From: an uncultured Clostridia bacterium
GTDB taxonomy: Bacteria; Bacillota; Clostridia; TANB77; CAG-508
Assembly: GCA_934162205.1 (NCBI GenBank)
Contig: CAKPIA010000001.1
Coordinates: 128,058-192,057, forward strand
Direction of reading: 5' to 3'
DNA: 64,000 bases
In this document: in pieces, positions 7,235 to 62,684 of the stretch
Layout of the letters: every line of letters begins with the position of its first letter
How positions within the stretch are numbered: position 1 is the stretch's first letter
Position numbers and translations under genes: made by a program
The notes under the pieces: generated by a model
Seen by the model: the letters and a program-made list of their open reading frames with translations, nothing else
Database searches by the model: none
What the model was told of the DNA's origin: nothing

Positions 7235-8335
7235 TTATTTACATTCTTTCCGAAGTATTTTGCTTTTGTCTTCTATTTCTTGTTCAATTTCCTTTTGTAA
7301 CTCTTCTATCCCTATGTTTGTAGCCTCATCAACATCATATACTATATTAGTCTTTTCTTTTTCTTTATATGTCAATTTTGTTACAGAAATAGGTAAATAT
7401 AAATTTGAAAATATTTTAAACTTTTTTTCTGCGTTTATTGTATCATAAAATTCAAATTTTGAAACCCTTTTATTAAAATTTATTTCAAAATTATTAATCT
7501 TAACTCCATACTTATTCTCTTCATTTCCTGTGTCCGTAAGCTTTTCTTGATTGTAATATATTTTTTCTGATTTTGTATGCCAAACTTTTGCCTCAATGTT
7601 TCCAATACTGTGTACATATCTTGTACCCGTGTACTTTCCTTCCATTGTACCAGATATTAATACATCACCTTCTTTTACTGTATCTCCAACATTTACCATA
7701 GCTGTTCCTTTTTGTGCATTTATTTTGGTTATAACGCCTGTTTTGTTTGATACAATGTTGCAATATTCATTTGAATCTATTATATCTGGTTTTTCTTCTG
7801 TTTTTACAACTTTAACAATTACATTTGTACCTTTTAGTTCTATCCCTATCCATGCAATATCTTGTCTTTTTAGTCTTATATTATTTATTATATCTTTAGA
7901 ATTTACTTTTGATTTTAATGTTCCTATTTTCAATCCCGCTTCTTGCAAATCCTGTTCTATATTTATAAGTTCTTTACCATCTTCTTCTTTAATTTCAACA
8001 TTCCATATATAATTAGAACTTAATACTATTAATAATGAAATTATTATTAAAAATAGTCCAAAAATTTTTCTTTTTTTGTATCTATTTAAGACAAATGGCA
8101 ATCCACTTTTCTTTTTTATTTTTATTTTACATTTTGTTTTTCTTGCCACATCTGATAACTGTTTAAAATCTTTTATTCCTATATTTAAATATAGTTTTAC
8201 ATTTTTATCTCTTTTTAAATTCCATATTAATAGTTTTTTATTTGTACATATATTTATAAATCTTTCTATATAATAACCTTCTACACTAATCCTTAAATAT
8301 CCAATTATATAACTAAAAATTATCTTTATAAACAT
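7235..8335 (-). CDS. yqfD: Sporulation protein YqfD.
   Basis: Length about 366 aa, a central TM segment, immediately downstream of yqfC. The conserved yqfC-yqfD pair. Confidence 0.75.
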   Translation of the reverse strand: MFIKIIFSYIIGYLRISVEGYYIERFINICTNKKLLIWNLKRDKNVKLYLNIGIKDFKQLSDVARKTKCKIKIKKKSGLPFVLNRYKKRKIFGLFLIIISLLIVLSSNYIWNVEIKEEDGKELINIEQDLQEAGLKIGTLKSKVNSKDIINNIRLKRQDIAWIGIELKGTNVIVKVVKTEEKPDIIDSNEYCNIVSNKTGVITKINAQKGTAMVNVGDTVKEGDVLISGTMEGKYTGTRYVHSIGNIEAKVWHTKSEKIYYNQEKLTDTGNEENKYGVKINNFEINFNKRVSKFEFYDTINAEKKFKIFSNLYLPISVTKLTYKEKEKTNIVYDVDEATNIGIEELQKEIEQEIEDKSKILRKECK

Positions 8336-9570: not shown

Positions 9571-10038
9571 TTATAGTGTTTTTATATCACTATATACATC
9601 TTTATTTATAAACATTTTATATTTTTCTATATTTTTTCTAATATTTGTAGCAGAAATATTATATAATTTTCTCTCTGGATCTACCAATACATTTTCTATT
9701 TTAAGATAATCAGCAACACATTTTCCATATGGTTCACTGCTATAAAAATAATTAACATTTTTATCTTTTATTATTTCATATAAATATTCCATTTGAATTT
9801 TAACACTTTTTTCATCTAATCCATACTGCTTTGGACTATTATATGCTTCTAATATTTTTATATTAGGAAAATCATTCTTTATCCACTTTATTTTTTTATT
9901 TATATCAATATATTCTGGTGTGTCATATACAACCACATAAAAATCGTCCATGTCTTTTAATGCTGTGGCTATTAAATATTTGTGTCCTATATGATATGGT
10001 GAAAACTTTCCTATTGTAAATCCAATTTTTTTATTCAT
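9571..10038 (-). CDS. HxGH-motif nucleotidyltransferase (cytidylyl/adenylyl-transferase-like, NMNAT-like).
   Basis: GKFSPYHIGHKYLI is the (T/H)xGH signature of the nucleotidyltransferase superfamily. Length is 155 aa. Confidence 0.6.
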   Translation of the reverse strand: MNKKIGFTIGKFSPYHIGHKYLIATALKDMDDFYVVVYDTPEYIDINKKIKWIKNDFPNIKILEAYNSPKQYGLDEKSVKIQMEYLYEIIKDKNVNYFYSSEPYGKCVADYLKIENVLVDPERKLYNISATNIRKNIEKYKMFINKDVYSDIKTL

Positions 10039-39005: not shown

Positions 39006-39132
39006 AAATTTCTCCTTTAAACAATTTATAATTTAATTTTGCTATATTTATCTTCTTCAGAAAATTATCATAGTATGATAATTTTCTGAAATACTAAAAA
39101 CTTCTAATGATAATTCATTAGAAGTTCTATTT

Positions 39133-40479
39133 TTAAAATCCATATGCTGAAAATAAGAAGTTACCCATATAAACTTGAACACATGGTACTAATACTACTA
39201 TAACAAAGAATATTAATACAACTCCTACTATTGAATAAACAACCTCCGGTAAAACTTTCATTATTTTTTCTAAAGTATTATCTATATCAATATCCATATA
39301 TTCTACAAGTTTTTCAACCATTTCTGTTAAATCTGTTTGCATACCAATTTTTAGCATTTCTGTTTCCATTGATGATGATAAATTTGATTTTTCAAAAGGT
39401 TCGATCCAAGAATCTCCTACTAATACATTGTTTATTGCTGTTTCTATCATAGATAACATTACATAGTTTTGTACTACGTTTTTACTTACTTCTAATGCAT
39501 CCTGAACCCTCATTCCATTTTTTAAGTTTAAAAGCATTGCCTTCATAAATCTTGAAAAATCCAATGAATAAATTAGTTTTCCAAAAATCGGCATTGTATA
39601 TTTAAAATAGTGAAAATTATATTTTCCTTTTGGTGTATTTATATAAAATAATATTGCTACTATAACTCCAGTAATAAGCATAAGAGGAATATACCAAAAC
39701 TCTATAAGTAAATTTACTACCTTTTGGAACCATAAAGTTATAGCTGGAAGTGTATCTTTTGTACCTAATTCTTCAAAAACATGTTGTATAGCTGGTATTG
39801 CAAATAATGTTCCAACAAAAAGCATTATTATTAATAAAACAAATTGTACCAAATTAGGAATTAAAATACCTCTTAATTTTTTTGTTACTCTTTCAGAATC
39901 ATCTAAATATTTTACAGCTTGTTTTAATGAGTTCTCAAGTGATCCTGATAATTCTCCAACTTTTATCATATTTATATAAATATATGGAAATACATTAGAA
40001 TAATATTCCATAGTTGTATACATATTTTCTCCTGCTTCAACCCCTGCTAATATATCTTCTAATATTCCCCTTAACGTATAATTTTCTGTACTATTAATTA
40101 TTGTAGTTAATGCATGTATATTATTAAAGTTAGCTTTTTTCAATAAGTAAAAGTTTTGAGTAAATACAACTAGATCTCTTGATGTTATACGTTCAGATTT
40201 TGCTAAATAAAGCATAGCTTTTTCTTTTGTTGACAATGATCTTTGTTTAGTTCTACTTACATTAGTTGTTGTTACATTTTTCATTATTTCTTGAATATCT
40301 GTAACATTTCTTTTTTGCTGTCTCTTTTGCTTAGATCTATATGCAACTTGATCAACCGATATTGGAATTATATTATTATTTTTTAATTTTTTAATTAAAA
40401 TTTGTTTACTTACTTCTTCTACTCTATTCCTTATTATTTGACCACTTTCAGTTACTGCTTTATAAATATATATTGGCAC
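39133..40479 (-). CDS. pilC: Type IV pilus platform protein PilC (GspF family).
   Basis: Two GspF repeats and three TM segments. Length is 448 aa. Confidence 0.85.
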   Translation of the reverse strand: MPIYIYKAVTESGQIIRNRVEEVSKQILIKKLKNNNIIPISVDQVAYRSKQKRQQKRNVTDIQEIMKNVTTTNVSRTKQRSLSTKEKAMLYLAKSERITSRDLVVFTQNFYLLKKANFNNIHALTTIINSTENYTLRGILEDILAGVEAGENMYTTMEYYSNVFPYIYINMIKVGELSGSLENSLKQAVKYLDDSERVTKKLRGILIPNLVQFVLLIIMLFVGTLFAIPAIQHVFEELGTKDTLPAITLWFQKVVNLLIEFWYIPLMLITGVIVAILFYINTPKGKYNFHYFKYTMPIFGKLIYSLDFSRFMKAMLLNLKNGMRVQDALEVSKNVVQNYVMLSMIETAINNVLVGDSWIEPFEKSNLSSSMETEMLKIGMQTDLTEMVEKLVEYMDIDIDNTLEKIMKVLPEVVYSIVGVVLIFFVIVVLVPCVQVYMGNFLFSAYGF

Positions 40480-40500
40480 AAATTACACCTCCTTATACTT

Positions 40501-41598
40501 TTATCCTTTTTTTATCTTTAATTGCATTATTGTTCTATTTAATGTCTCAATATTTTTTTCTTCTATTTGTGACTTAGCTTGTTCTAAAGTTATTTTATCA
40601 TCAACAAACAATTCTGCAATTGAATTAATTAATCCTATACTTCCTTTATCTAAATTACTTTGTATAGCATCTTCTATTTCTGAAACACTTATTTTTTCTT
40701 TTCTAATTATTCCCGCAACAATATTGTCAACAACCATTACTTCAGGAACTAATACTAATTTTCCATCAATTCCTTGTAGTAATCTTTGAGATAATACTAA
40801 TTTTAGTACTGAAGATAATAAATATTTTATACTTGCTTGATCTCTAACTTCATAGAAATTTATCATTCTATCTATTGTTTCTGCACAAGATTTTGTGTGC
40901 AATGTTCCTATTACTAAATGCCCTGACTCTGCCATTTCTATTGCTGCTTCCATAGTTACTTTATCTCTAATCTCTCCTATTACTAAAATATCACAGTCTT
41001 CTCTTAAAGAGTTTTTAACACCATCACTAAATGTTAATACATCTTTTCCTTTTCCTACTTCTTTTTGAACTATTAAAGATTTTTTTGAATGATGCTTATA
41101 TTCTATCGGATTTTCTAGTGTTAGTATTTTTTTGTTTTGGTTTTCATTTATTTCATTTATTAATGCATTTAATGTTGTTGTTTTTCCAGAGTTTGTTTTT
41201 CCAGTTACTAATATTAGTCCTTGTGGTTGATATGTCATTCTCCTTATTATATCTGGAACTCCTAATGATTCATATGTTGGCAATTCATTTTTTATTAATC
41301 TTAATGTACATATAGTCATATTATCTGCCAATGAAATATTTACTCTTAAACGTATTCCTTTATATTCATAAGATGTGTCAAGTTTTCTAGTAGTTCTATA
41401 AACCTCATCAGCGTCAACACTACCCTTTATTAGAAAATCATATATTTCTGTCATATCTTCTTCTGTCAACACATCCATTTCTTCAATTTCTTCTAATCTT
41501 CTCATTATTCTAAGTATTGGTTTATTATTACTTACTAAATGCACATCTGAAGCATCTCTTGCAATTGCTTCATCTAATATCTTATTCATGTCAACCAT
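40501..41598 (-). CDS. pilT: Type IV pilus retraction ATPase PilT.
   Basis: 365 aa. Walker A VTGKTNSGKTTT, Asp box, His box. No N-terminal GspE_N domain. Confidence 0.85.
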   Translation of the reverse strand: MVDMNKILDEAIARDASDVHLVSNNKPILRIMRRLEEIEEMDVLTEEDMTEIYDFLIKGSVDADEVYRTTRKLDTSYEYKGIRLRVNISLADNMTICTLRLIKNELPTYESLGVPDIIRRMTYQPQGLILVTGKTNSGKTTTLNALINEINENQNKKILTLENPIEYKHHSKKSLIVQKEVGKGKDVLTFSDGVKNSLREDCDILVIGEIRDKVTMEAAIEMAESGHLVIGTLHTKSCAETIDRMINFYEVRDQASIKYLLSSVLKLVLSQRLLQGIDGKLVLVPEVMVVDNIVAGIIRKEKISVSEIEDAIQSNLDKGSIGLINSIAELFVDDKITLEQAKSQIEEKNIETLNRTIMQLKIKKG

Positions 41599-41623
41599 GT
41601 TTTTTCCTCCGTTTAATTATATT

Positions 41624-43297
41624 TTAATATATTAGTAATTTTCTGTTTAACTCTTCCAAGTTAGTTTTTCCCTCAATTACTTTTTCAATACCATCTACTA
41701 TAAATGGTTTATAATCTTCTTCTAGTGCTTTTCTCATTATTTCTATACTAGATGCACCTTTCATTATTAATTCCTTAATATTATCTGTTATATCTAGTAT
41801 TTCAAATATTCCCATTCTATCTAAATATCCTGTATTATTACATTCCTTACAACCTACAGCATCATATGTTACCTTATTTTTCAAGTCAAATTCACAATTA
41901 TATTGTTTTCCTATTTTTTCAATTATATTTATTTCATCATCTGTAAATTTTCTTTCTTTCATACAATGTGGGCATAATTTTCTTACTAATCTTTGAGAAA
42001 TTGTTGTAGCTAAAGTACTAGCTATATCATAATCAGATAATCCCATTTTTCTTAATCTAGTTATTACTTCTACACTATTTATTGTGTGAATTGTTGATAA
42101 TACATAGTGTCCAGTTTGTCCAGCTTGTATTGCAATTTCTGCTGTTTCTCTATCTCTTATTTCTCCAACTAAGATTATATCTGGGTCTTGTCTTAATACT
42201 GTTCTTAATGATTCAGAAAATGTAATATTTTTGTCAATTTCTATTTGATTTAATCCATCTATTCTTATCTCTACTGGATCTTCTATTGTTGTTATATTTA
42301 TTTCTGGACTATTTAAATAATCAATTATACTATATAATGTTGTTGTTTTTCCTTCACCTGTAGGTGCAGCCATTATTGTCATACTATTTCTTTTATTTAT
42401 ACTTTTCTTCAATTTATCCTCTTCTGCTGGGAATCCTAATTCTAATATATTTTTAATATCAGAATCTTTTTTTAATAATCTTAAAACAAATTTTTCTCCA
42501 TAAACATTTTTTTGAGAAGATACACGAATATTATAGTCATCATATAATAATATTCTACCATCTTGTGATTCTTGTTTTTCTTGGTGCATATTTGATATAG
42601 CTTTTAATCTTCCAATCATTTGTGTTTGTTTATCTTTAGATATATTAGCAGCAGTATAAAGTTCACCATCAATTCTATATCTTACACGTACAGAATCTTC
42701 CATTGGCTCTATATGAATATCACTTGCTCTTTTTTCCATACCAGTTTTTATTATATTATCTATTAATTCTGTAATTGTATTCCCTTGTTCTGTAATATTT
42801 AAACTTTCAGATGCACTTCCTTCAGATGCTTTTAAATATTTTAATATATCACTCTCAAATGTTATATAAGAATCCATTATTAGACCTTTATTTAACATTA
42901 ATAATCTAATTGTTTCTATTGCTTTACTATTTGATGTTTCTGCAAAACACACTTTTATTCTACTATTTTCAATATCAAATGGTATAACTTTGTTTTTCTT
43001 TGCAACTTCCATTGAAATATAATCTGTAAGGTTTAATTTTATATCATAAGGTTTTAAAACAATTCCTTTTTCTCCTAATATTTCCCCTATTGCTTTTATT
43101 AATATATCAGAATCACATACTTGTAAAGTATATAATATATCACCTAATCTCATATTAGGATGTTTTCTTTGATATTGTAACGCCTCATCTATATTAGCTT
43201 CTGTTACAATTCCTCTTTTTACTAATTCTACTCCAATAGGTTGTCTTCTTCTTACTTCCATAATACTTCTTCCTTTCTTAGAATCTCTTACTTCCAT
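41624..43297 (-). CDS. pilB: Type IV pilus assembly ATPase PilB (GspE family).
   Basis: GspE_N domain, Walker A APTGEGKTTTL, tetracysteine CPHC...CKEC. The true start may be at the internal Met at about 43261. Confidence 0.85.
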   Translation of the reverse strand: MEVRDSKKGRSIMEVRRRQPIGVELVKRGIVTEANIDEALQYQRKHPNMRLGDILYTLQVCDSDILIKAIGEILGEKGIVLKPYDIKLNLTDYISMEVAKKNKVIPFDIENSRIKVCFAETSNSKAIETIRLLMLNKGLIMDSYITFESDILKYLKASEGSASESLNITEQGNTITELIDNIIKTGMEKRASDIHIEPMEDSVRVRYRIDGELYTAANISKDKQTQMIGRLKAISNMHQEKQESQDGRILLYDDYNIRVSSQKNVYGEKFVLRLLKKDSDIKNILELGFPAEEDKLKKSINKRNSMTIMAAPTGEGKTTTLYSIIDYLNSPEINITTIEDPVEIRIDGLNQIEIDKNITFSESLRTVLRQDPDIILVGEIRDRETAEIAIQAGQTGHYVLSTIHTINSVEVITRLRKMGLSDYDIASTLATTISQRLVRKLCPHCMKERKFTDDEINIIEKIGKQYNCEFDLKNKVTYDAVGCKECNNTGYLDRMGIFEILDITDNIKELIMKGASSIEIMRKALEEDYKPFIVDGIEKVIEGKTNLEELNRKLLIY

Positions 43298-43362
43298 TAT
43301 ACTTTATTTGTTTATAAATTTGTTGTTTTTTCGAAAATTACATATATTTACTAGTTTTTACA

Positions 43363-43839
43363 TTATTTTGAAGTTTTTAGTGTATATGTTGTATCTCTGG
43401 TATTTCCATTTACTGTTATTGTTACTTTTAATTTGTAATTTTTTTCATCACTAACATCCTCAAATTTACAATTATCGATATTGCTACATATTTTTATTTT
43501 ATTCAAATATATTGATTGATTTTTAAATGTATATTGTGTATATCCTAAATTTCCAATCTTTTCATCTTTATCATTTGGATTATAAAAAATAATGTAATTA
43601 TCATTTTTTCCGATATTTTGAGTATTACAATCATAAATAATATTTCCAGATTGATTAACTTCTTCTGTAAGAAATGTATTTAATTTTGTTATTTCTTCCA
43701 TTGAAGTTGTGTTATTTGATAATTTATTAACATTTCCGTAGTAATATCTTGTTATTACAGCTATTATGCCAACAATAATTATCATTGCTACAATATATAT
43801 AATTATTGAAGTAATTGTAATTCCCTTTTCAGATTTCAT
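43363..43839 (-). CDS. Pilin-like / minor pseudopilin (class III signal peptide lacking Glu5).
   Basis: MKSEKG|ITITSIIIYIVAMIIIVG. It sits in the pilus operon. Confidence 0.55.
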   Translation of the reverse strand: MKSEKGITITSIIIYIVAMIIIVGIIAVITRYYYGNVNKLSNNTTSMEEITKLNTFLTEEVNQSGNIIYDCNTQNIGKNDNYIIFYNPNDKDEKIGNLGYTQYTFKNQSIYLNKIKICSNIDNCKFEDVSDEKNYKLKVTITVNGNTRDTTYTLKTSK

Positions 43840-43850
43840 TTTTTCTCCTT

Positions 43851-44270
43851 TTAATTATTTAATATCCATGTATATATATTTAGGTTTTGTTCATTTTTTC
43901 CTACTAAGTATTTAACATTAACTGTAACTTTTTTTGCAACATGAGTACCATCTGTGTTAATTTCATTAAATTGTAATACATCTGTCTCATTTTCACATTT
44001 GGTATCTATTGTGTAACCATTTAAACTTGCATATTTTGAATCAATATATGATTTTAAATAATCTTCTGTAAGATTTTCAAAACTTGTTCCTTTAGCATAT
44101 TCTAGTATATCAATCATTATAGATGTTGCTTTTTCTTTTCTTTCTACTTTCTTTGACTCTATTGCAAAATTATATAAAACTGTTGTTATTATTCCTGCAA
44201 ATATTATAACAATTATTATTGCAATTGATATATCTATTCCTGTAAATCCATTACTTTTTCTTAAATTCAT
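43851..44270 (-). CDS. Pilin-like / minor pseudopilin.
   Basis: MNLRKSNG|FTGIDISIAIIIVIIF has a prepilin-like leader with Asp at +5. Confidence 0.55.
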   Translation of the reverse strand: MNLRKSNGFTGIDISIAIIIVIIFAGIITTVLYNFAIESKKVERKEKATSIMIDILEYAKGTSFENLTEDYLKSYIDSKYASLNGYTIDTKCENETDVLQFNEINTDGTHVAKKVTVNVKYLVGKNEQNLNIYTWILNN

Positions 44271-44288
44271 ATATCTTCTCCTTTTAAC

Positions 44289-45077
44289 TTAAGAAACTAA
44301 AAATGTAATAATTAAAAATACTATTATATTTGAAATGCTTAAAAAATATCCAATTGGTAATTTATATGTTGCCTTTGTTTTTATTGATTTGTTTTTTATT
44401 TTATATATTAATAAATAAATTGCAATTGCAAATAAGGCAATTATTATTGTATTTATTGTTACATATTCAGCAGTAAATATAATCATTATTGTTAATAATG
44501 TTAAAATTCCAATTGTATAATTTTCTTTTTTCTTCTTTTTTGTTATTATAAACTGAACTATTGTAAGTAACACATATATTGCCAAATATATAATATATCT
44601 ATATATACTAACTTTTTCTATTATATATAGATATACTATATATAAAACTGAAATTACTCCACCAAATATTAGTACAGATTTGTCTATTTTTATATTTTCT
44701 TTATCTATTCCTGCTATTAAAAATATAAATGTTAAATATAGAATTACAAAAATAAAATAAATATATAAATTTATACTTGTTTGCATATTTATATTTAATG
44801 ATAAAGCAAATAATAAAAATGTTAATCCAGACATAATTTCAAAAATTATATATCTAGGGCTTATTTTTTTACCACAATGTTTGCATTTTCCTTTTAAAAA
44901 TATATAACTTAAAACTGGAATCAACTCAAAAAAACCTAATTTTGAATTACAATTAGGGCAATAAGAGTGTGTATGTGTTATATCTTGTTTTATTGGTATT
45001 CTATATGTTGCAAGTGTAAAAAAGCTTCCAAATAATGTTCCAATTATAAATATTGTTATATATATTATTGTATTCAT
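44289..45077 (-). CDS. pilD: Prepilin peptidase PilD (A24 family).
   Basis: N-terminal CxxC...CxxC zinc motif and polytopic membrane topology. Length is 262 aa. Confidence 0.8.
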   Translation of the reverse strand: MNTIIYITIFIIGTLFGSFFTLATYRIPIKQDITHTHSYCPNCNSKLGFFELIPVLSYIFLKGKCKHCGKKISPRYIIFEIMSGLTFLLFALSLNINMQTSINLYIYFIFVILYLTFIFLIAGIDKENIKIDKSVLIFGGVISVLYIVYLYIIEKVSIYRYIIYLAIYVLLTIVQFIITKKKKKENYTIGILTLLTIMIIFTAEYVTINTIIIALFAIAIYLLIYKIKNKSIKTKATYKLPIGYFLSISNIIVFLIITFLVS

Positions 45078-45154
45078 TTATTTTCCTACCCTTTATAGAA
45101 ATTTAGGCATATACATATAATGCATATGCCTTTTATTAAATTTCAATTGATTAA

Positions 45155-45577
45155 TTATTCAGCTGTAGCTGTCCAACCAGCAGCTGTAAATCCACCATCT
45201 TTATCAACTGTAGCTTCTTCAGTTTTTCCATCTGAGTTTTTGTTTACTGTTGTTATTTTTCCAGAAGCAAATGAATAATGTTTGTCATTTTTCATATATT
45301 TTGTACTGTTAGCAGTTAACCAATCAGAAAATGTATCAGTTGTTGGTGTTGTAGCTACGTATTTAGCTTCCATATATGCTGTATATGCAGCATTTAAATC
45401 TAAAGCAGCAGCTTCTTTATCTTCAGCTATTTTGCTTGTATCAACAGCTTTTGTAGCTCTACCTAATAATCCATTATCACCTGTTAACATAGCGATTGAT
45501 ACACCTGCTAATATTAATAATACGATTATTGTGATTACTAAAGCAACTAAAGTAATACCTTTTTGATTTTTCATCAT
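45155..45577 (-). CDS. Candidate major pilin with a prepilin leader lacking Glu5.
   Basis: MMKNQKG|ITLVALVITIIVLLILAGV is parallel to clostridial PilA KG|FTLVEL but has Ala at +5. Length is 140 aa. Confidence 0.6.
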   Translation of the reverse strand: MMKNQKGITLVALVITIIVLLILAGVSIAMLTGDNGLLGRATKAVDTSKIAEDKEAAALDLNAAYTAYMEAKYVATTPTTDTFSDWLTANSTKYMKNDKHYSFASGKITTVNKNSDGKTEEATVDKDGGFTAAGWTATAE

Positions 45578-45673
45578 TTGAAATCCTCCTTCTTTATAAA
45601 ATTTTCTTTTGTATATATTTATTTAAATAAATATAACCTAACTCTAATAAATTTTTACATCCTTTTTGTTTTA

Positions 45674-46132
45674 TTATTTTGTTCCTGTATCTGGAAATAA
45701 TGTTTTATTTGCTGTTGTATTTGTCTTTGTTGTGTTATTTTCTGTTACACTATTTCCATTTGTATTTGAACTTGTACTTGAATTTGTTGTTGTTTGATTA
45801 CCAGCTGTTTGATTATTATCTTCTGTTGTATTTACATTTTCTTGTTGATAAGAAGAAAATGGATTTGCTTTTCCTGAATTATAATCTCCTTGTTTCTCAT
45901 AGTTGTCCAAATCTGTTTCGTCTATTTTATATGTTAATATTACTTGACTATTTTCTGCATCAACTGACTCTTGAATGGCTTTCTTTACTTCTTCGGTTTG
46001 TGTATACGAAACTTCTTGAGGTACAATTTTATTTGAAGGAACATAGTTATATAAAACTACACCTAATACCAATATAATTGCCAAACATAATAATAATATA
46101 ATTATTGTTTCTCTAATAATTGTTTTAGCCAT
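45674..46132 (-). CDS. Membrane-anchored Ser/Thr/Asn-rich protein in the pilus operon.
   Basis: N-terminal TM segment and a low-complexity T/N/S-rich C-terminus. Confidence 0.5.
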   Translation of the reverse strand: MAKTIIRETIIILLLCLAIILVLGVVLYNYVPSNKIVPQEVSYTQTEEVKKAIQESVDAENSQVILTYKIDETDLDNYEKQGDYNSGKANPFSSYQQENVNTTEDNNQTAGNQTTTNSSTSSNTNGNSVTENNTTKTNTTANKTLFPDTGTK

Positions 46133-46148
46133 TTTTAATTCCTTTCTT

Positions 46149-46895
46149 TTATTGATTTGTTGTTCCTGTTGTATTTACTGCTGAACCAGTAGTACTTGCT
46201 GGTTGTGTGCTTGTACTATTTTTCATTGTTGTATTACTTCCTGTTGCAGATGCAGAGTTTGTATTTGTATCAGTTGTACTTGGTGTTGATGAATATGTTA
46301 CATTTGAAGATTCAATGTTTATACTAATATCTTTGCATACGAAACTTCCTGTTAATATATTCGTATCACTACCTGGTTGTAAACTAAACTCTTCTATTTT
46401 AAATCCTAATGATGTATCATTTTCTATGTCATATATAAAATCTGCAATTCCTACATATTGTCCATTTACTGTAAATTGTAAGTTATATAATCCTTGAGTT
46501 CCTGTTGAGCTATTTTTTAAGTCTATTTTCATTGTTACTCCTTCTTTTTTAGCCCAATTTCCTATTTTAGTCCACAAATATTCTATCTCGTATTTTTCTA
46601 TTTTGGCTGCACTTTGTACTTGTTCATCTGTACTAATTGTAACCATGTTATCATATTTTTCTTTTTCGCTTTTTAAGTCTTTCATACTTTTAGTTATATT
46701 TGATATTTGTGTTGGATAATCAGTGCTAATTAATTTTGAAGCAACTGAAATTTTTTCATCTAAATTTTCATTTAATTCTTTTATTTCTTTTAAACCTGAA
46801 ATTCTATAATTTATTATTGTTATTCCGTTATAACACATATATCCTGCTACTGCTAATAATATAACAATTAAAACAGATATTAATAATTTTCTCAT
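46149..46895 (-). CDS. pilO: PilO-like pilus assembly protein.
   Basis: Bitopic: N-terminal TM segment, coiled coil, C-terminal domain. The T/S-rich tail suggests glycosylation. Confidence 0.55.
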   Translation of the reverse strand: MRKLLISVLIVILLAVAGYMCYNGITIINYRISGLKEIKELNENLDEKISVASKLISTDYPTQISNITKSMKDLKSEKEKYDNMVTISTDEQVQSAAKIEKYEIEYLWTKIGNWAKKEGVTMKIDLKNSSTGTQGLYNLQFTVNGQYVGIADFIYDIENDTSLGFKIEEFSLQPGSDTNILTGSFVCKDISINIESSNVTYSSTPSTTDTNTNSASATGSNTTMKNSTSTQPASTTGSAVNTTGTTNQ

Positions 46896-48529
46896 GGCAA
46901 GTCTCCTTCTATTGTAACTTTTACAACATCATTTTCTTTAACACCACTATTTGATATTACATCTGTTAAAACATTTGCAGATTTTATCTTTGCCTTAAAA
47001 TATCCTATTTGTTCATATTTATCCGCTTGTACTTTTATAACAATATGTTTATTAGTTGTGTTTTCTATAGATGTAATTTGTACATTTTCTGGAATGTCTG
47101 TCATAACTTTATATAATAAATTTGGTATAGAATTTCTAGTTTGGTTTATTTCATTTATTCTATCAGATAATTCTTGTAAATTTTGTATTAATTGTGTATA
47201 TTCATTTTTTCTAGTTTTTATTCTATTTTCATCTTGTCTTGCTAATGATATCTGTGAATTGGTATTATTTATTACTTTTGCTACTTCATCTTGTTTTTTA
47301 TTAATTTGTTTTGTAAGTAACGCCGAAAATCCACTAAATATTATTATAAATATCAAAATGCCTACTGCTGTTCTTAGCAAATTATATTCTACCCCATCTA
47401 GTTTTGCACTAAAATCAAAATTAATGTTTATATTGCTTTTTTTCTTATTTGTAGTATTTTTATTTTTTTCCTTATTCTTTGTTTTATCTAACTCAGGCAT
47501 TGTTATTGAAAGTTTATCCATTAATGTTGTTTTTTTAAAGTTCATTCCTTCGATGCCTTCATTAAGTCCTTGTAAAGCTAAAGATATTGCTGAATTAACT
47601 TCTATATAATCTTTTATATTTGTTTCTTTTATAAGTTTTTTTATAAAATATGGTTTTAATATTTCACATTTAACTCCTGTTAAATACTCTTGAAAATATA
47701 AATCAATATTATTTATTGCAGAAGCTGTTCCAGTTATATAAACTACCTCTATTCTATTTAAACTTTCATTTATTATTTTTTGTACTCTTCCTACTATATT
47801 AAATAATGTAGGCATAATATCTTCTAAATGTCCTTGTGTATCTTCTCCTAATTCTCTTCCTTCAGCTGTATATATTGTTGTATTTTTACATATTTCGTAA
47901 GATTTAGAAAAAGAATTTTCTTTCATGTTTATTTTTTGTAAAATTTCTTCACTGCCTTGATCTAATGTTTCAACATTATAAATTTTTTCATCAATAATTG
48001 TTGTTATTCTTGTTTTATTTTCTATATTAACTATAATTGAATTTTGCTTAGGTTGTAAATCTGCAATATTTGGAATAGTCATAGAAATTGGAGATATATT
48101 TGTTAATCTATATTTAGTAAAATCTTGTAGTTTTTTATTTATTTCTATCTTATTTGCAGCTACATGTATTACTTTGATTTTTTCTTTGTCTTCGGTATTG
48201 TCTACTAAAGCATATCTTTTTTCAAAAACATTTGGATTATACCCTTTATCTGAGCAATATGATTCAAATTCAACTTCTATAGCTTTTTGCAAATCTTTTT
48301 TTGATAATAGTGAAAACATATTAAAATAAGTATACATTTCTTCTGATAAATTTACACTTATTGGTGTTTTGTAGCTATAAGTTTCCTCTATTATTTGATT
48401 TATAGCATTTGTCAAATTTTCATAGAACTTAATTCCAAACGACTCAATTTTTATATTATCATGGTCTTTGGAAACTTTTGCATATTTAATTATGTTTTCT
48501 TCAATATATAAACCTAAACATTGAGCCAT
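46892..48529 (-). CDS. pilMN: PilM-PilN fusion protein.
   Basis: N-terminal actin-like PilM fold (about 330 aa), then a TM segment and a coiled-coil PilN-like region. Length is 545 aa. Confidence 0.6.
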   Translation of the reverse strand: MAQCLGLYIEENIIKYAKVSKDHDNIKIESFGIKFYENLTNAINQIIEETYSYKTPISVNLSEEMYTYFNMFSLLSKKDLQKAIEVEFESYCSDKGYNPNVFEKRYALVDNTEDKEKIKVIHVAANKIEINKKLQDFTKYRLTNISPISMTIPNIADLQPKQNSIIVNIENKTRITTIIDEKIYNVETLDQGSEEILQKINMKENSFSKSYEICKNTTIYTAEGRELGEDTQGHLEDIMPTLFNIVGRVQKIINESLNRIEVVYITGTASAINNIDLYFQEYLTGVKCEILKPYFIKKLIKETNIKDYIEVNSAISLALQGLNEGIEGMNFKKTTLMDKLSITMPELDKTKNKEKNKNTTNKKKSNININFDFSAKLDGVEYNLLRTAVGILIFIIIFSGFSALLTKQINKKQDEVAKVINNTNSQISLARQDENRIKTRKNEYTQLIQNLQELSDRINEINQTRNSIPNLLYKVMTDIPENVQITSIENTTNKHIVIKVQADKYEQIGYFKAKIKSANVLTDVISNSGVKENDVVKVTIEGDLP

Positions 48530-54031: not shown

Positions 54032-56341
54032 ATGAAATACATAGACAAATTTTTGAAAAAATTAAATACAGATAGAAATACATTTGCAACATTTATTTTA
54101 ACATTAATTACAGTATATATAGCAATAGATAGAATAGTAGAAATATTATTTATGATATTTACAGGAGTTTCTGTTTCATATTGGGGACCACTTAAATATA
54201 CTTTAGCATTAGCATGTCCTATTTTTGCATTCTTATTTTCAGGAAGTTCTTCATTTGCAAAAATAAAAAATGTTAAAGTTACATTATTTTATACATTTAT
54301 AATTGGTTTGTACATAATTGCTCTTTCTATGTTTATACAATGGTTTAATCAAGGTTGTTGGTTATTTTTAATGTCTATACCAAATTATGTTGAAATAGTA
54401 ACTAATTTTTCTGAATTAATTAGACCTGCATTTACATCACTTGCATTATATTTACCATTAGTTACATTTTTCCCATTAATAAAATGGATTGTATTTGGCG
54501 TAAATGATAGTAAAGATATGATTCGTTCAGTTTGGGATTATGCAGGTATAAGTTTGGCAGATAAAAAACAAGGTCATGGTCCATATACTTGTGAAGTATT
54601 TCTATTTAAAGATAAAGAAAGAAATATAAATGTTAAAATATCAGAAAATAACAGATTTTTATCATTATTAGTTTGTGGTGGATCCGGATCTGGAAAAACA
54701 GCTTTAATTGTTGAACCTATGATTGCAAGAGATATTGAAAGAAAACAATTTTTTAAAAATGTTTCTAAAGAATTAGGTTTTACAGCATTAAAAACAAATA
54801 TTGCAACATTAGATTGTCCTTATTCTAACGAATATATAAATGAAAACTTTAATTTAAATATGTTAAAACCTGCTTTTGGAAAAGAAACTGTATATAAAGC
54901 TTTTATGAAAAAAATGATTTTAACAGATTCTTCTGAAATAGTATATAGAAATTTAGGTTTTACATATTTTACTCCTGATATTGAAACAATATCACATATG
55001 ACTGAAATTTGTGATAATTATCATATAAAATATAATATAATAGATCCTTCAAGTACATCATCAATTGGTTTAAATCCATTTGTTTATGATGATCCATCAA
55101 AAATTGCTGTAACTATATCTTCTGTAATAAAAGGAATGTATAACGATGCACACGAAGAATTAGAAGAAGCTTATAGAGAAGATATTACAATTCAAGCAAT
55201 TGAAAATATATCCATTTTATTAAAAGAAATGTATCCTAGATTAAATGATGGCGCACTACCAAATTTAGAAGATTTATTAAAAATGCTTACAAATTTTGAT
55301 TTAGTAGAAAAAATGTGTGAAATATTAAAAACAGATGAAGAATTAGCAGAAAAATATAGTATTCAATTATCTTATTTTAAAAATAATTTTTATAAAAATG
55401 GTAAAGGTAGGGATGAAACACAAAATTTTGTTTATTCAGCAATTACACAACTTGATACCTTATTAAGAATACCAGGGATTAAAAGTATATTATGTAACAG
55501 ACATAATAACTTAAATTTTGATGAAGCTTTGAAAAATGGTGAAATAACCTTTGTATGTACAAGAAGAGGAGATTTAGGAAATACTGGTCATAAAGCATTT
55601 GGATTATTCTTCCTTTTAACTATGCAAAACGCTGTATTAAGAAGACCTGGAAATGAAAAATCAAGAATACCTCATTTTCTTTATATAGATGAATTTTCTG
55701 ATTTCATATCAAGATCAACAGAACCAATATTTACAATGTATCGTAAATATCGTGTGGGTACTGTTATAACAATACAAAGTTTAACTCAATTAGAAAGTGC
55801 AACCTCAAAATATAATTATAAATCAACAATTCTTTCTAACTGTGCAAATAAAATTTTAACAGGGGGATCTACTCCAGAAGAATTAGATTGGTGGTCTACA
55901 GAACTTGGAGATAAAAGAGAGTGGACTTATAAAAATAATATAGATGTTTCTAAACTAGAATATGATTCTAAATATTCAGATATAAAATGGGCTTGGGTTA
56001 AAAATTTCGCACCTGCAAAATTAGCAAATATTAGATTTAAAATGTGCGTTTATAAAGTTAAAGATGATTCTGGAAAGAATATCGTTGGTGAAGGAATATT
56101 AAATTATTTAGACTCAAAATATAAAGAAGAACAAAAAGATAAATTTTATGATTTTTCTAAATTTAACAGTAATATTATAGATGATTCAAATGATGATAAA
56201 AAAAATAAATTTGATCCAAAACATATTAACTTTAAAGATGAAAGAGATGAAATAAATCCAGTTCAAACTGATGACACTGATGCAAGTTTCATATTTGATA
56301 ATGAAGATGCAATATCAATTAATTTAAAGAAAAAGAAATAA
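54032..56341 (+). CDS. Membrane-anchored P-loop ATPase, type IV coupling protein-like (TraG/TraD/VirD4 family).
   Basis: About five N-terminal TM helices, Walker A VCGGSGSGKTA, Walker B FLYIDEF, and a C-terminal TVITIQSLTQLESATSKY...SNCANKILTGGSTPEELDWWSTELG block resembling the TraG-D_C domain. Confidence 0.55.
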   Translation: MKYIDKFLKKLNTDRNTFATFILTLITVYIAIDRIVEILFMIFTGVSVSYWGPLKYTLALACPIFAFLFSGSSSFAKIKNVKVTLFYTFIIGLYIIALSMFIQWFNQGCWLFLMSIPNYVEIVTNFSELIRPAFTSLALYLPLVTFFPLIKWIVFGVNDSKDMIRSVWDYAGISLADKKQGHGPYTCEVFLFKDKERNINVKISENNRFLSLLVCGGSGSGKTALIVEPMIARDIERKQFFKNVSKELGFTALKTNIATLDCPYSNEYINENFNLNMLKPAFGKETVYKAFMKKMILTDSSEIVYRNLGFTYFTPDIETISHMTEICDNYHIKYNIIDPSSTSSIGLNPFVYDDPSKIAVTISSVIKGMYNDAHEELEEAYREDITIQAIENISILLKEMYPRLNDGALPNLEDLLKMLTNFDLVEKMCEILKTDEELAEKYSIQLSYFKNNFYKNGKGRDETQNFVYSAITQLDTLLRIPGIKSILCNRHNNLNFDEALKNGEITFVCTRRGDLGNTGHKAFGLFFLLTMQNAVLRRPGNEKSRIPHFLYIDEFSDFISRSTEPIFTMYRKYRVGTVITIQSLTQLESATSKYNYKSTILSNCANKILTGGSTPEELDWWSTELGDKREWTYKNNIDVSKLEYDSKYSDIKWAWVKNFAPAKLANIRFKMCVYKVKDDSGKNIVGEGILNYLDSKYKEEQKDKFYDFSKFNSNIIDDSNDDKKNKFDPKHINFKDERDEINPVQTDDTDASFIFDNEDAISINLKKKK

Positions 56342-62216: not shown

Positions 62217-62684
62217 TTACTCCATATTTTGTAATTGTGTTAATGTATATTTAATTTTATTATTTTCTTCAAAACCTTTTGTATATAAGATTTCTACTGT
62301 TAAATTTTCTTTATTATATTTAACAAAATAATACTCGTTTTCTGGCAATTTTATATCTGATAAATTCATATTATTTAATTTTTCTTGGTTTAAATAATAC
62401 CAGTCACTTGAATAATTTTCTCCAGCCTTTTTCAATTTTGAAACTTTTTCTGTATCTGTTTCTTGTATTTGAACTCCTATTAATTTTGATTCATCTTTAC
62501 TGAAATTATATTCTTCTAGTGCTGTCTTTGTTTTAGCTTCTACTAATAACATATTTGTTTTTAAACTTTCTAATTGTGCTTTTTTTATTAAAGAATATCC
62601 TCCTGTAATTGTAACACCAGCTAATATTAGCATTATAACTATTGTTATTACAAGTGTTACCATAGTTATACCTTTATTATTCAT
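62217..62684 (-). CDS. Pilin-like protein. Paralog of the 45155-45577 pilin with the same Glu5-less leader.
   Basis: MNNKG|ITMVTLVITIVIMLILAGV. Its stop lies 3 nt upstream of the rnhB start. Confidence 0.55.
   Translation of the reverse strand: MNNKGITMVTLVITIVIMLILAGVTITGGYSLIKKAQLESLKTNMLLVEAKTKTALEEYNFSKDESKLIGVQIQETDTEKVSKLKKAGENYSSDWYYLNQEKLNNMNLSDIKLPENEYYFVKYNKENLTVEILYTKGFEENNKIKYTLTQLQNME

Follow-up and report, generated by a model that had tools for sequence, protein, structure and literature searches.

The operon and its pilins

The window analysed here (the whole stretch of 64,000 nucleotides, taken from contig CAKPIA010000001.1 of an uncultured Clostridia bacterium) has a G+C content of about 25% and carries a type IV pilus operon of ten tightly packed open reading frames (ORFs), which occupies 48529 to 39133 of the minus strand. 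An earlier note on this DNA had described the same genes, and all ten minus-strand ORFs are present in the ORF list of the window with the coordinates and order it gave, whilst its identification of a chromosomal type IV pilus operon that includes PilB, PilT and PilC is borne out by Pfam and NCBIfam matches. Two features make the operon unusual, a candidate major pilin that has Ala at position +5, and a gene in the position of pilD whose product keeps a methylase domain and has lost the active site of the protease. In the list below and throughout, aa stands for amino acids and the arrow marks the predicted site of leader cleavage.

46892 to 48529, minus strand: putative PilM-PilN fusion, 545 aa, with an actin-like cytoplasmic domain, one transmembrane helix, a coiled coil and a ferredoxin-like outer domain
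46149 to 46895, minus strand: PilO-like bitopic membrane protein, 248 aa, named from position and topology, with a Thr/Ser/Asn-rich C-terminal tail at residues 196-248
45674 to 46132, minus strand: 152-aa protein with an N-terminal membrane anchor and a Thr/Asn/Ser-rich tail, between the PilO-like gene and the pilin
45155 to 45577, minus strand: major pilin candidate, 140 aa, MMKNQKG↓ITLVALVITIIVLLILAGVSIAMLTGDNG..., starting MMKNQKG↓ITLVA with Ala at +5
45105 to 45131, minus strand: terminator-like hairpin between the pilin and pilD-like genes, a 12-bp stem and then a T-rich tail
44289 to 45077, minus strand: PilD-like protein, 262 aa, four-Cys zinc-finger methylase domain intact and peptidase domain degenerate
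43851 to 44270, minus strand: minor pilin, 139 aa, MNLRKSNG↓FTGID, the sole pilin of the operon with an acidic +5
43363 to 43839, minus strand: minor pilin, 158 aa, MKSEKG↓ITITS, Ser at +5
41624 to 43297, minus strand: PilB extension ATPase, 557 aa, T2SSE match at 9.8e-104, MshEN-like N-terminal domain
40501 to 41598, minus strand: PilT-family retraction ATPase, 365 aa, TIGR01420 pilT_fam match at 6.8e-92
39133 to 40479, minus strand: PilC platform protein, 448 aa, T2SSF in two stretches, GspF match at 7.8e-52
39097 to 39128, minus strand: terminator-like hairpin after pilC, where the operon ends, from a hairpin search
62217 to 62684, minus strand: orphan pilin-like gene outside the operon, 155 aa, MNNKG↓ITMVTLVITIVIMLILAGV, Thr at +5

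A glutamate at position +5 (Glu5) is near-universal in bacterial pilins and, with N-terminal methylation, is a hallmark feature of bacterial type IV pilins. The three pilin-like genes of the operon all do without it (G↓ITLVA, G↓ITITS and G↓FTGID), as the earlier note had observed. The stronger statement that all of them lack an acidic residue at +5 goes too far, as the 139-aa minor pilin (G↓FTGID) carries Asp5, and a published definition of pilins admits either Asp or Glu at this position (PMC3244431). The acid is conserved in this minor pilin, with Asp in 18 of 19 orthologues and Glu in the other (locus L006), and with Asp or Glu in 15/15 aligned members of its family. In sister lineages that have a canonical PilD its homologue reads G↓YSLIE, with Glu5 in loci L083 and L081.

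Databases contain more than 7,700 relatives of the 140-aa candidate major pilin, from uncultured gut Clostridia, which have no precomputed Pfam domain and bear 'hypothetical protein [Clostridia bacterium]' as their sole source name. Among 229 distinct members of the family Gly-1 and Thr+2 are found in all 229, Ala+5 in 227 and Lys or Arg at -2 in 202, position +1 is Ile or Val, and in all 229 Asp and Glu are absent from +1 to +26. The near-invariant segment, in which +5 is Ala, can be written as [KR]G↓ITL[IV]ALVITIIVLLILAGV; from +1 to +25 there is no charge and hardly any variation, the first charge falls in a G-[ED]-N-G turn (+26 to +29) that is conserved, and past about residue 60 the sequences diverge freely. 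A frozen N-terminus joined to a divergent body is the pattern expected of a helix in a shared filament core that is served by one machine, and judged from the alignment it is not what a simple membrane anchor would be expected to show. At the level of sequence the absence of Glu5 is a character of the whole family, far beyond chance, and no local oddity.

The family has features by which type IV pilins are defined, a short hydrophilic leader with Gly at -1 and a stretch of about 21 hydrophobic residues, the latter supplied by positions +1 to +25; the Glu or Asp at +5 is lacking in the major pilin (Ala) and in the 158-aa minor pilin (Ser). The 18 orthologues of this second minor pilin read G↓[IV]T[LIT]x[S/T/A], with +5 mostly Ser or Thr, and its L083 homologue reads G↓VTLTT. 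Pfam N_methyl (PF07963) scores the 140-aa pilin at 21.0 bits, just below its gathering cut-off of 21.2, and finds no match in either minor pilin (139 and 158 aa), and none of the NCBIfam pilin-signature models (including TIGR02532) matches a pilin of the operon. That the scores fall below the curated signature thresholds fits with the family being unannotated, and as detection by signature (N_methyl, GFxxxE) misses it, the type IV pili of this group of gut Clostridia may be under-counted.

The earlier note had allowed for the case that the Glu5-less pilins are a known subfamily, with homologues of verified assembly in related clostridia. Half of this holds, such homologues being very common in related Clostridia and none of them having verified assembly. 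The N-terminal pilin motif is in no paper of the searchable literature (coverage of which stops short of subscription journals), nor was any paper found there that describes Glu5-less homologues from related Clostridia. The collections of phages and plasmids contain no homologue of the 140-aa pilin; in IMG/VR there are five weak loci (L107-L111), contigs of a viral collection with short matches to the pilin N-terminus.

Orthologous operons have one to five tandem pilin copies at the position of the 140-aa pilin, and in the window a terminator-like hairpin lies directly 3' of the pilin gene, with three such hairpins in the region where shuffles would give 0.9. A promoter-like site is found upstream of the first gene of the operon, such matches being no commoner than in shuffled sequence.

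The family is not limited to operons. The orphan 155-aa pilin-like gene of the window (MNNKG↓ITMVT) lies 14 kb away from the operon, just upstream of an rnhB-like gene, and belongs by phmmer to the same N-terminal family as the 140-aa pilin. Amongst 80 related loci, returned by a scan of one genome per species, 59 are orphan family members, with a median mature length of about 310 aa and a maximum of 882 aa. Many of the orphan proteins are very large (300-880 aa, and up to 882 aa), for example L039:6613-9291, L020:4742-6784 and L070:5088-7067, often with several per genome. These large proteins with an invariant pilin N-terminus are probably modular pilins or adhesins.

The PilD-like protein and its fused relatives

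The gene in the position of pilD had been taken for that of a normal prepilin peptidase, which does not hold, since Pfam finds no match to Peptidase_A24 (PF01478) in the 262-aa product and the second catalytic Asp is gone. Cleavage requires the two Asp of PilD, which are universally conserved, and the zinc-finger domain of PilD is the methylase (PMC10191384). This latter domain is well preserved, A24_N_bact (PF06750) matches at 3e-29 and all four Cys are present (CPNC...CKHC), and the protein also retains eight hydrophobic segments and the first catalytic Asp (D125, in GIDKE). At the second site it reads YTIG-ILT where canonical relatives read GxG-D[IV]K, with Ile in the catalytic column. The column is Asp in 26/26 canonical close relatives with GxGDxK, and in the clade of the window protein it is Ile, Val, Thr or similar, the Asp being gone from all 41 members and the column acidic in 2% of them; the result rests on these 26 database sequences and not on the Pseudomonas aeruginosa PilD of one alignment. 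Within the clade the first Asp (GIDKE) is usually kept and in some members lost, and identity is 57% in the N-domain vs 33% in the C-domain, the methylase domain being the best conserved part.

Identical copies of the window's PilD-like protein occur in 32 blocks of a contig collection; the four places shown are ENA metagenome assemblies, one of which is a Hadza gut sample. Read from its residues the gene encodes a pseudo-peptidase, in which the protease active site is lost and the methylase domain kept. The cluster had also been described as complete, yet neither the operon nor the 64-kb window has a visible active prepilin peptidase by motif scan or phmmer. In the same literature search no description was found of a PilD that is catalytically dead, methylase-only or fused to a pilin.

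Among the matches to the PilD-like protein the loss goes further. In 13 independent clusters at 50% identity the peptidase half is gone altogether and the methylase domain is joined to a minor pilin. Such a fusion has the four-Cys N-domain and the first three membrane helices that go with it, connected through a Lys/Glu-rich linker to an entire class III pilin. The pilin motif of the fusions is [KR]xG↓V[FY]xxE, with Glu5 in 12 clusters and Asp5 in one, and the fused pilin body resembles the 139-aa minor pilin. The proteins concerned are P0188, P0192, P0197, P0202, P0204, P0207, P0210, P0211, P0212, P0217, P0218, P0226 and P0261. One fusion gene could be placed in its operon (L112:519-1334), where the order is pilin, fusion, minor pilin, PilB, PilT, PilC. 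As a gene fusion this arrangement suggests that the methylase domain is functionally tied to the one pilin that keeps an acidic +5, and as the fusions have no peptidase domain, cleavage would have to come from another enzyme. Glu5 is important for methylation and dispensable for cleavage, and Gly-1 is critical to processing (PMC4471445), with which the link between the methylase and the acidic pilin fits.

The nearest canonical relatives of the PilD-like protein (42% identity) belong to operons that are built alike. That of L083 begins with PilMN, PilO-like and a small membrane protein, continues with PilD, two minor pilins (first Glu5, then Thr5), PilB and PilC, and closes with three pilins; these last (L083:15138-17997) are tandem pilins of 243-265 aa that read G↓VSLITLVITIV, with Thr at +5, and follow pilC in a cluster without pilT. 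Here major pilins without Glu5 stand beside an intact PilD, which argues that the loss of Glu5 is independent of the loss of the peptidase and that the decay of the peptidase is the later step.

Machinery and conservation of the operon

All 80 loci of the scan come from uncultured Clostridia or 'Clostridium sp.' metagenome bins, with isolate names that point to the guts of humans (Hadza), rabbits, chickens and mice among others. An identical operon order is found in 22 of them, all species-level metagenome-assembled genomes (MAGs), and runs PilMN, PilO-like, 152-aa protein, one to five pilins, PilD-like, 139-aa pilin, 158-aa pilin, PilB, PilT, PilC. At the end of a 117-kb metagenome contig (L087:16072-20789) the genes ROK-PilC-PilT-PilB appear as an inverted copy of those that precede them, most likely an assembly artefact and not biology.

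PilB, PilT and PilC are all present and all score below the NCBIfam equivalog cut-offs, and from these scores they are to be seen as divergent members of their families. PilB matches T2SSE at 9.8e-104, MshEN at 6.2e-7 and TIGR02538 at 1.8e-125, the last model scoring 420 against a cut-off of 676 bits; PilT reaches 308 bits with pilT_fam, for which the cut-off is 319, and PilC matches T2SSF at 1e-25, GspF at 7.8e-52 and the PilC models at about 1e-37. Residues 21-71 of PilB score 35.9 bits, with a cut-off of 38, against NF053729, the model of the MshE-type motif that binds cyclic di-GMP (c-di-GMP), and this hints at a possible control of piliation by c-di-GMP through the PilB N-terminus.

The suggestion that the 545-aa protein is a fusion of PilM and PilN finds moderate support in matches of its fold to PilM, in a C-terminus like that of GspL/XcpY and in PilN matches among its orthologues. 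Pfam has no match for the window protein itself, 15 of 17 orthologues match PilN weakly, and one homologue is named 'Tfp pilus assembly protein PilN' at JGI. When the predicted structure was compared with the PDB by Foldseek the top 11 matches were all PilM (3jc8_Ma, 2ych_A, 5eq6) at E values of 5e-6 to 3e-4, other actin-like ATPases came next, and the C-terminus matched the periplasmic domain of XcpY/GspL (5n7l) with a TM of 0.79, so that the whole shows a GspL-like architecture. The AlphaFold2 (AF2) model has a pLDDT of 36 from the single sequence and 46 with a 28-sequence alignment, its poor quality being put down to homologues that are too alike (72-99% identical). A PilM-PilN fusion of 545 aa is therefore proposed with moderate confidence.

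The label of PilO given to the 248-aa protein was overstated, resting on position and topology, with Pfam PilO matched by 0/18 orthologues. The gene is kept at the same position in 21 related loci, and the 152-aa gene, which has no family match in Pfam or NCBIfam, is kept between it and the pilin in 23. The Ser/Thr/Asn-rich tails that had been noticed in both proteins are real, S+T+N making up 68% of the tail in the PilO-like and 61% in the 152-aa protein against a window background of 19%, and the alignment of the PilO-like orthologues likewise has a T/N-rich tail in its consensus. That these tails are O-glycosylated is speculation.

Comparisons, explanations and minor observations

The closest likeness is to the type IVa pili of monoderm Firmicutes (C. 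difficile, C. perfringens, Streptococcus sanguinis), which share the chromosomal operon with PilB, PilT, PilC and (tentatively, in the present case) PilM/N/O-type genes, a gene in the pilD position, one small abundant pilin with minor pilins, the absence of a secretin and a PilB of MshEN type. Unlike these, the pilus described here has Ala at +5 of its pilin and escapes the Pfam and TIGR pilin signatures, its gene in the PilD position is without the protease active site, and its PilM and PilO are unrecognisable by sequence. Minor pilins of the tip (the GspK, PilK/PilX class) also combine a cleavable class III leader with the lack of Glu5, and in known systems it is a single, low-abundance capping minor pilin that is without it (PMC10191384); here it is the other way round, Glu5 being absent from the major pilin and from most of the family, whilst one minor pilin is acidic.

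Archaeal type IV pilins and archaellins often have no Glu5 either (PMC4471445), and their filament core does without the salt bridge from Glu5 to the N-terminus; the present system differs in its bacterial PilB/PilT ATPases, invariant Gly-1, PilM/N-like accessory proteins and bacterial host. An archaeal-type pilus or archaellum was rejected as a candidate, with the FlaI model giving 62-65 bits (cut-off 550) vs 420 for PilB and 308 for PilT. So was a Com pilus, the ATPase scoring 420 bits to PilB vs 220 to ComGA (cut-off 300), with PilT and the putative PilM-N present.

If cleavage is to come from elsewhere a candidate is at hand in a related locus, L011, where a gene at 7529-8287 encodes an A24 peptidase of 252 aa that has no zinc finger but contains the two catalytic motifs (IIDYKLQIIPN and GLGDVKL), 2 kb from an orphan family pilin. 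Enzymes of this peptidase-only kind are common in related MAGs. The PF01478-only family to which this enzyme belongs has 6,192 matches at E <= 1e-10 among 8,000 scored candidates; among the matches listed, identity to the L011 enzyme is 73-99%, and the name 'prepilin peptidase [Clostridia bacterium]' is given to two. At every locus examined the A24 gene has the same neighbours of a housekeeping kind, with ylbF, a 232-aa gene, a yqeG-like gene, the A24 gene and an M24 peptidase gene. An A24-only enzyme of about 250 aa is also seen in L091-L101 around position 10001, between genes for a yqeG-like phosphatase and an M24 Xaa-Pro peptidase. One contig that bears the A24 gene has a TraG-like gene 60% identical to that of the window, so that the A24-bearing organisms are related to the organism of the window. 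The stand-alone A24 enzymes of L011 and L091 resemble peptidases of the TadV/CpaA type in having the peptidase domain and no methylase domain, so the two activities of PilD can be separated onto different proteins; unlike TadV/CpaA, the present clade shows the reciprocal form as well, in which the methylase remains whilst the peptidase is inactive, missing or swapped for a fused pilin. The peptidase-only A24 enzyme probably cleaves prepilins in trans.

Taken as one explanation, we lean on balance towards a monoderm type IVa-like pilus with non-canonical pilins in an uncultured, low-GC gut lineage of Clostridia, in which cleavage in trans, a methylase-only PilD and polymerisation through Ala5 subunits would go together. 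Prepilins would be inserted in the membrane and cut at the invariant Gly-1 by the separately encoded, peptidase-only A24 enzyme. The PilD-like protein of the cluster would act as N-methylase only, or as a handler, of the minor pilin with the acidic +5, and this pilin would probably prime or anchor the filament. The Ala5 major subunits would then polymerise by purely hydrophobic packing of their N-terminal helices, with no salt bridge from Glu5 to the N-terminus, PilB and PilC would drive assembly and PilT retraction, and the orphan family pilins (300-880 aa) may be displayed or incorporated as modular adhesins.

Several points weigh against this explanation. A second A24 gene is absent from the 64-kb window and from the other fetched loci (motif scan, phmmer), and by synteny, contig look-ups and nucleotide overlap no single genome was found to contain the stand-alone peptidase along with the degenerate PilD. 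Pilus formation, pilin cleavage and methylation are here predictions from the genes. Glu5 mutants of canonical pilins form no homopolymers (PMC4471445), thus assembly with Ala5 must differ in some respect. Finally, the PilM part of the 545-aa protein is drawn from a low-confidence model, and neither hhalign against E. coli HofM nor a profile search of PDB sequences found a PilM match.

It might instead be assumed that the operon builds a short pseudopilus for secretion or display, similar to a type II secretion system (T2SS) and as has been proposed for the second type IV pilus system of C. perfringens, with the large orphans as its cargo or passengers. The orphan family members (59/80 loci, median about 310 aa and up to 882 aa) would suit this, and secretion that depends on type IV pili has been published in Clostridium (bioRxiv 10.1101/2024.11.04.621531), which lends it further weight. 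It seems unlikely all the same, as a PilT-family ATPase is conserved in the operon, and a gene for a pilin of 130-160 aa that is present one to five times in tandem and followed by a hairpin is what one typically sees for a major subunit made in abundance. The pseudopilus and the trans-cleaved, Ala5-based pilus are compatible and do not exclude each other.

Another view is that the operon is self-sufficient, its PilD being an active peptidase and methylase that cuts all three pilins at Gly-1, with only the pilins unusual. The gene does lie at the clostridial pilD position, its product has the A24 N-domain (3e-29), eight hydrophobic segments and the first Asp, and in the sister cluster a canonical PilD sits beside Glu5-less pilins. 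This is made quite improbable by the second Asp, which is gone from the window protein and from all 41 clade members yet is present in 26/26 canonical relatives, by the loss of the first Asp in some clade members and the lack of a Peptidase_A24 match, and by related lineages in which the entire peptidase domain is deleted, both Asp being critical (PMC10191384).

The pilins might on the other hand stay uncleaved, the pseudo-peptidase serving as a chaperone or scaffold and the subunits being assembled or membrane-anchored with their leader, in which case Glu5 would be unnecessary without a free amine. The acid at +5 of the major pilins and the active site of the peptidase are lost in the same operon, and no peptidase gene was found in 64 kb, which speaks for this. 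Such a pilus is nevertheless very doubtful, Gly-1 in 229/229 and Lys or Arg at -2 in 202/229 are the signature of a site under selection for cleavage, the sister lineage with Glu5-less pilins and a canonical PilD indicates that the two losses are not coupled, and the fusions keep [KR]xG↓xxxxE and would need cleavage for release of their pilin.

That the operon is a decaying remnant, its odd residues due to drift in an AT-rich, reduced genome, is scarcely credible, for although components fall under curated cut-offs (PilB 420 vs 676 and PilT 308 vs 319 bits) with PilM and PilO unmatched, the ten ORFs are intact and syntenic over 22 species-level MAGs, the pilin N-terminus is near-invariant over hundreds of sequences and the PilD-like protein is found unchanged in the 32 blocks mentioned above.

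A pilus operon with Glu5-less pilins and a degenerate PilD is widespread, and is uncharacterised in the searchable literature. More tentatively, and as something rather possible than probable, this may be a widespread lineage with Glu5-less major pilins, whose filament core would be without the canonical salt bridge, and in which PilD has been split reciprocally into a peptidase-only and a methylase-only protein, the latter dedicated or fused to the pilin with an acidic +5; if true, nature would here have uncoupled leader cleavage, N-methylation and Glu5 from one another. The role of pilin methylation is still 'a mystery' and 'enigmatic' in reviews (PMC10191384, PMC4471445). The lineage separates features that are regarded as hallmarks, having abundant pilins without Glu5, one acidic minor pilin and a methylase that has outlived the protease attached to it, and with these features separated the roles of Glu5 and of methylation become testable, for example in priming as opposed to bulk assembly.

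Elsewhere in the window, at 54032-56341 on the plus strand, a homologue of TraG/VirD4-like coupling proteins (769 aa) is found among the housekeeping genes infC-rpmI-rplT. It has precomputed Pfam matches to T4SS-DNA_transf (weak) and TraG-D_C, and no further conjugation genes were noticed nearby. In related contigs (L091) the 60%-identical TraG-like copy adjoins plsY-gpsA, and it therefore appears to be a conserved chromosomal gene of the clade.

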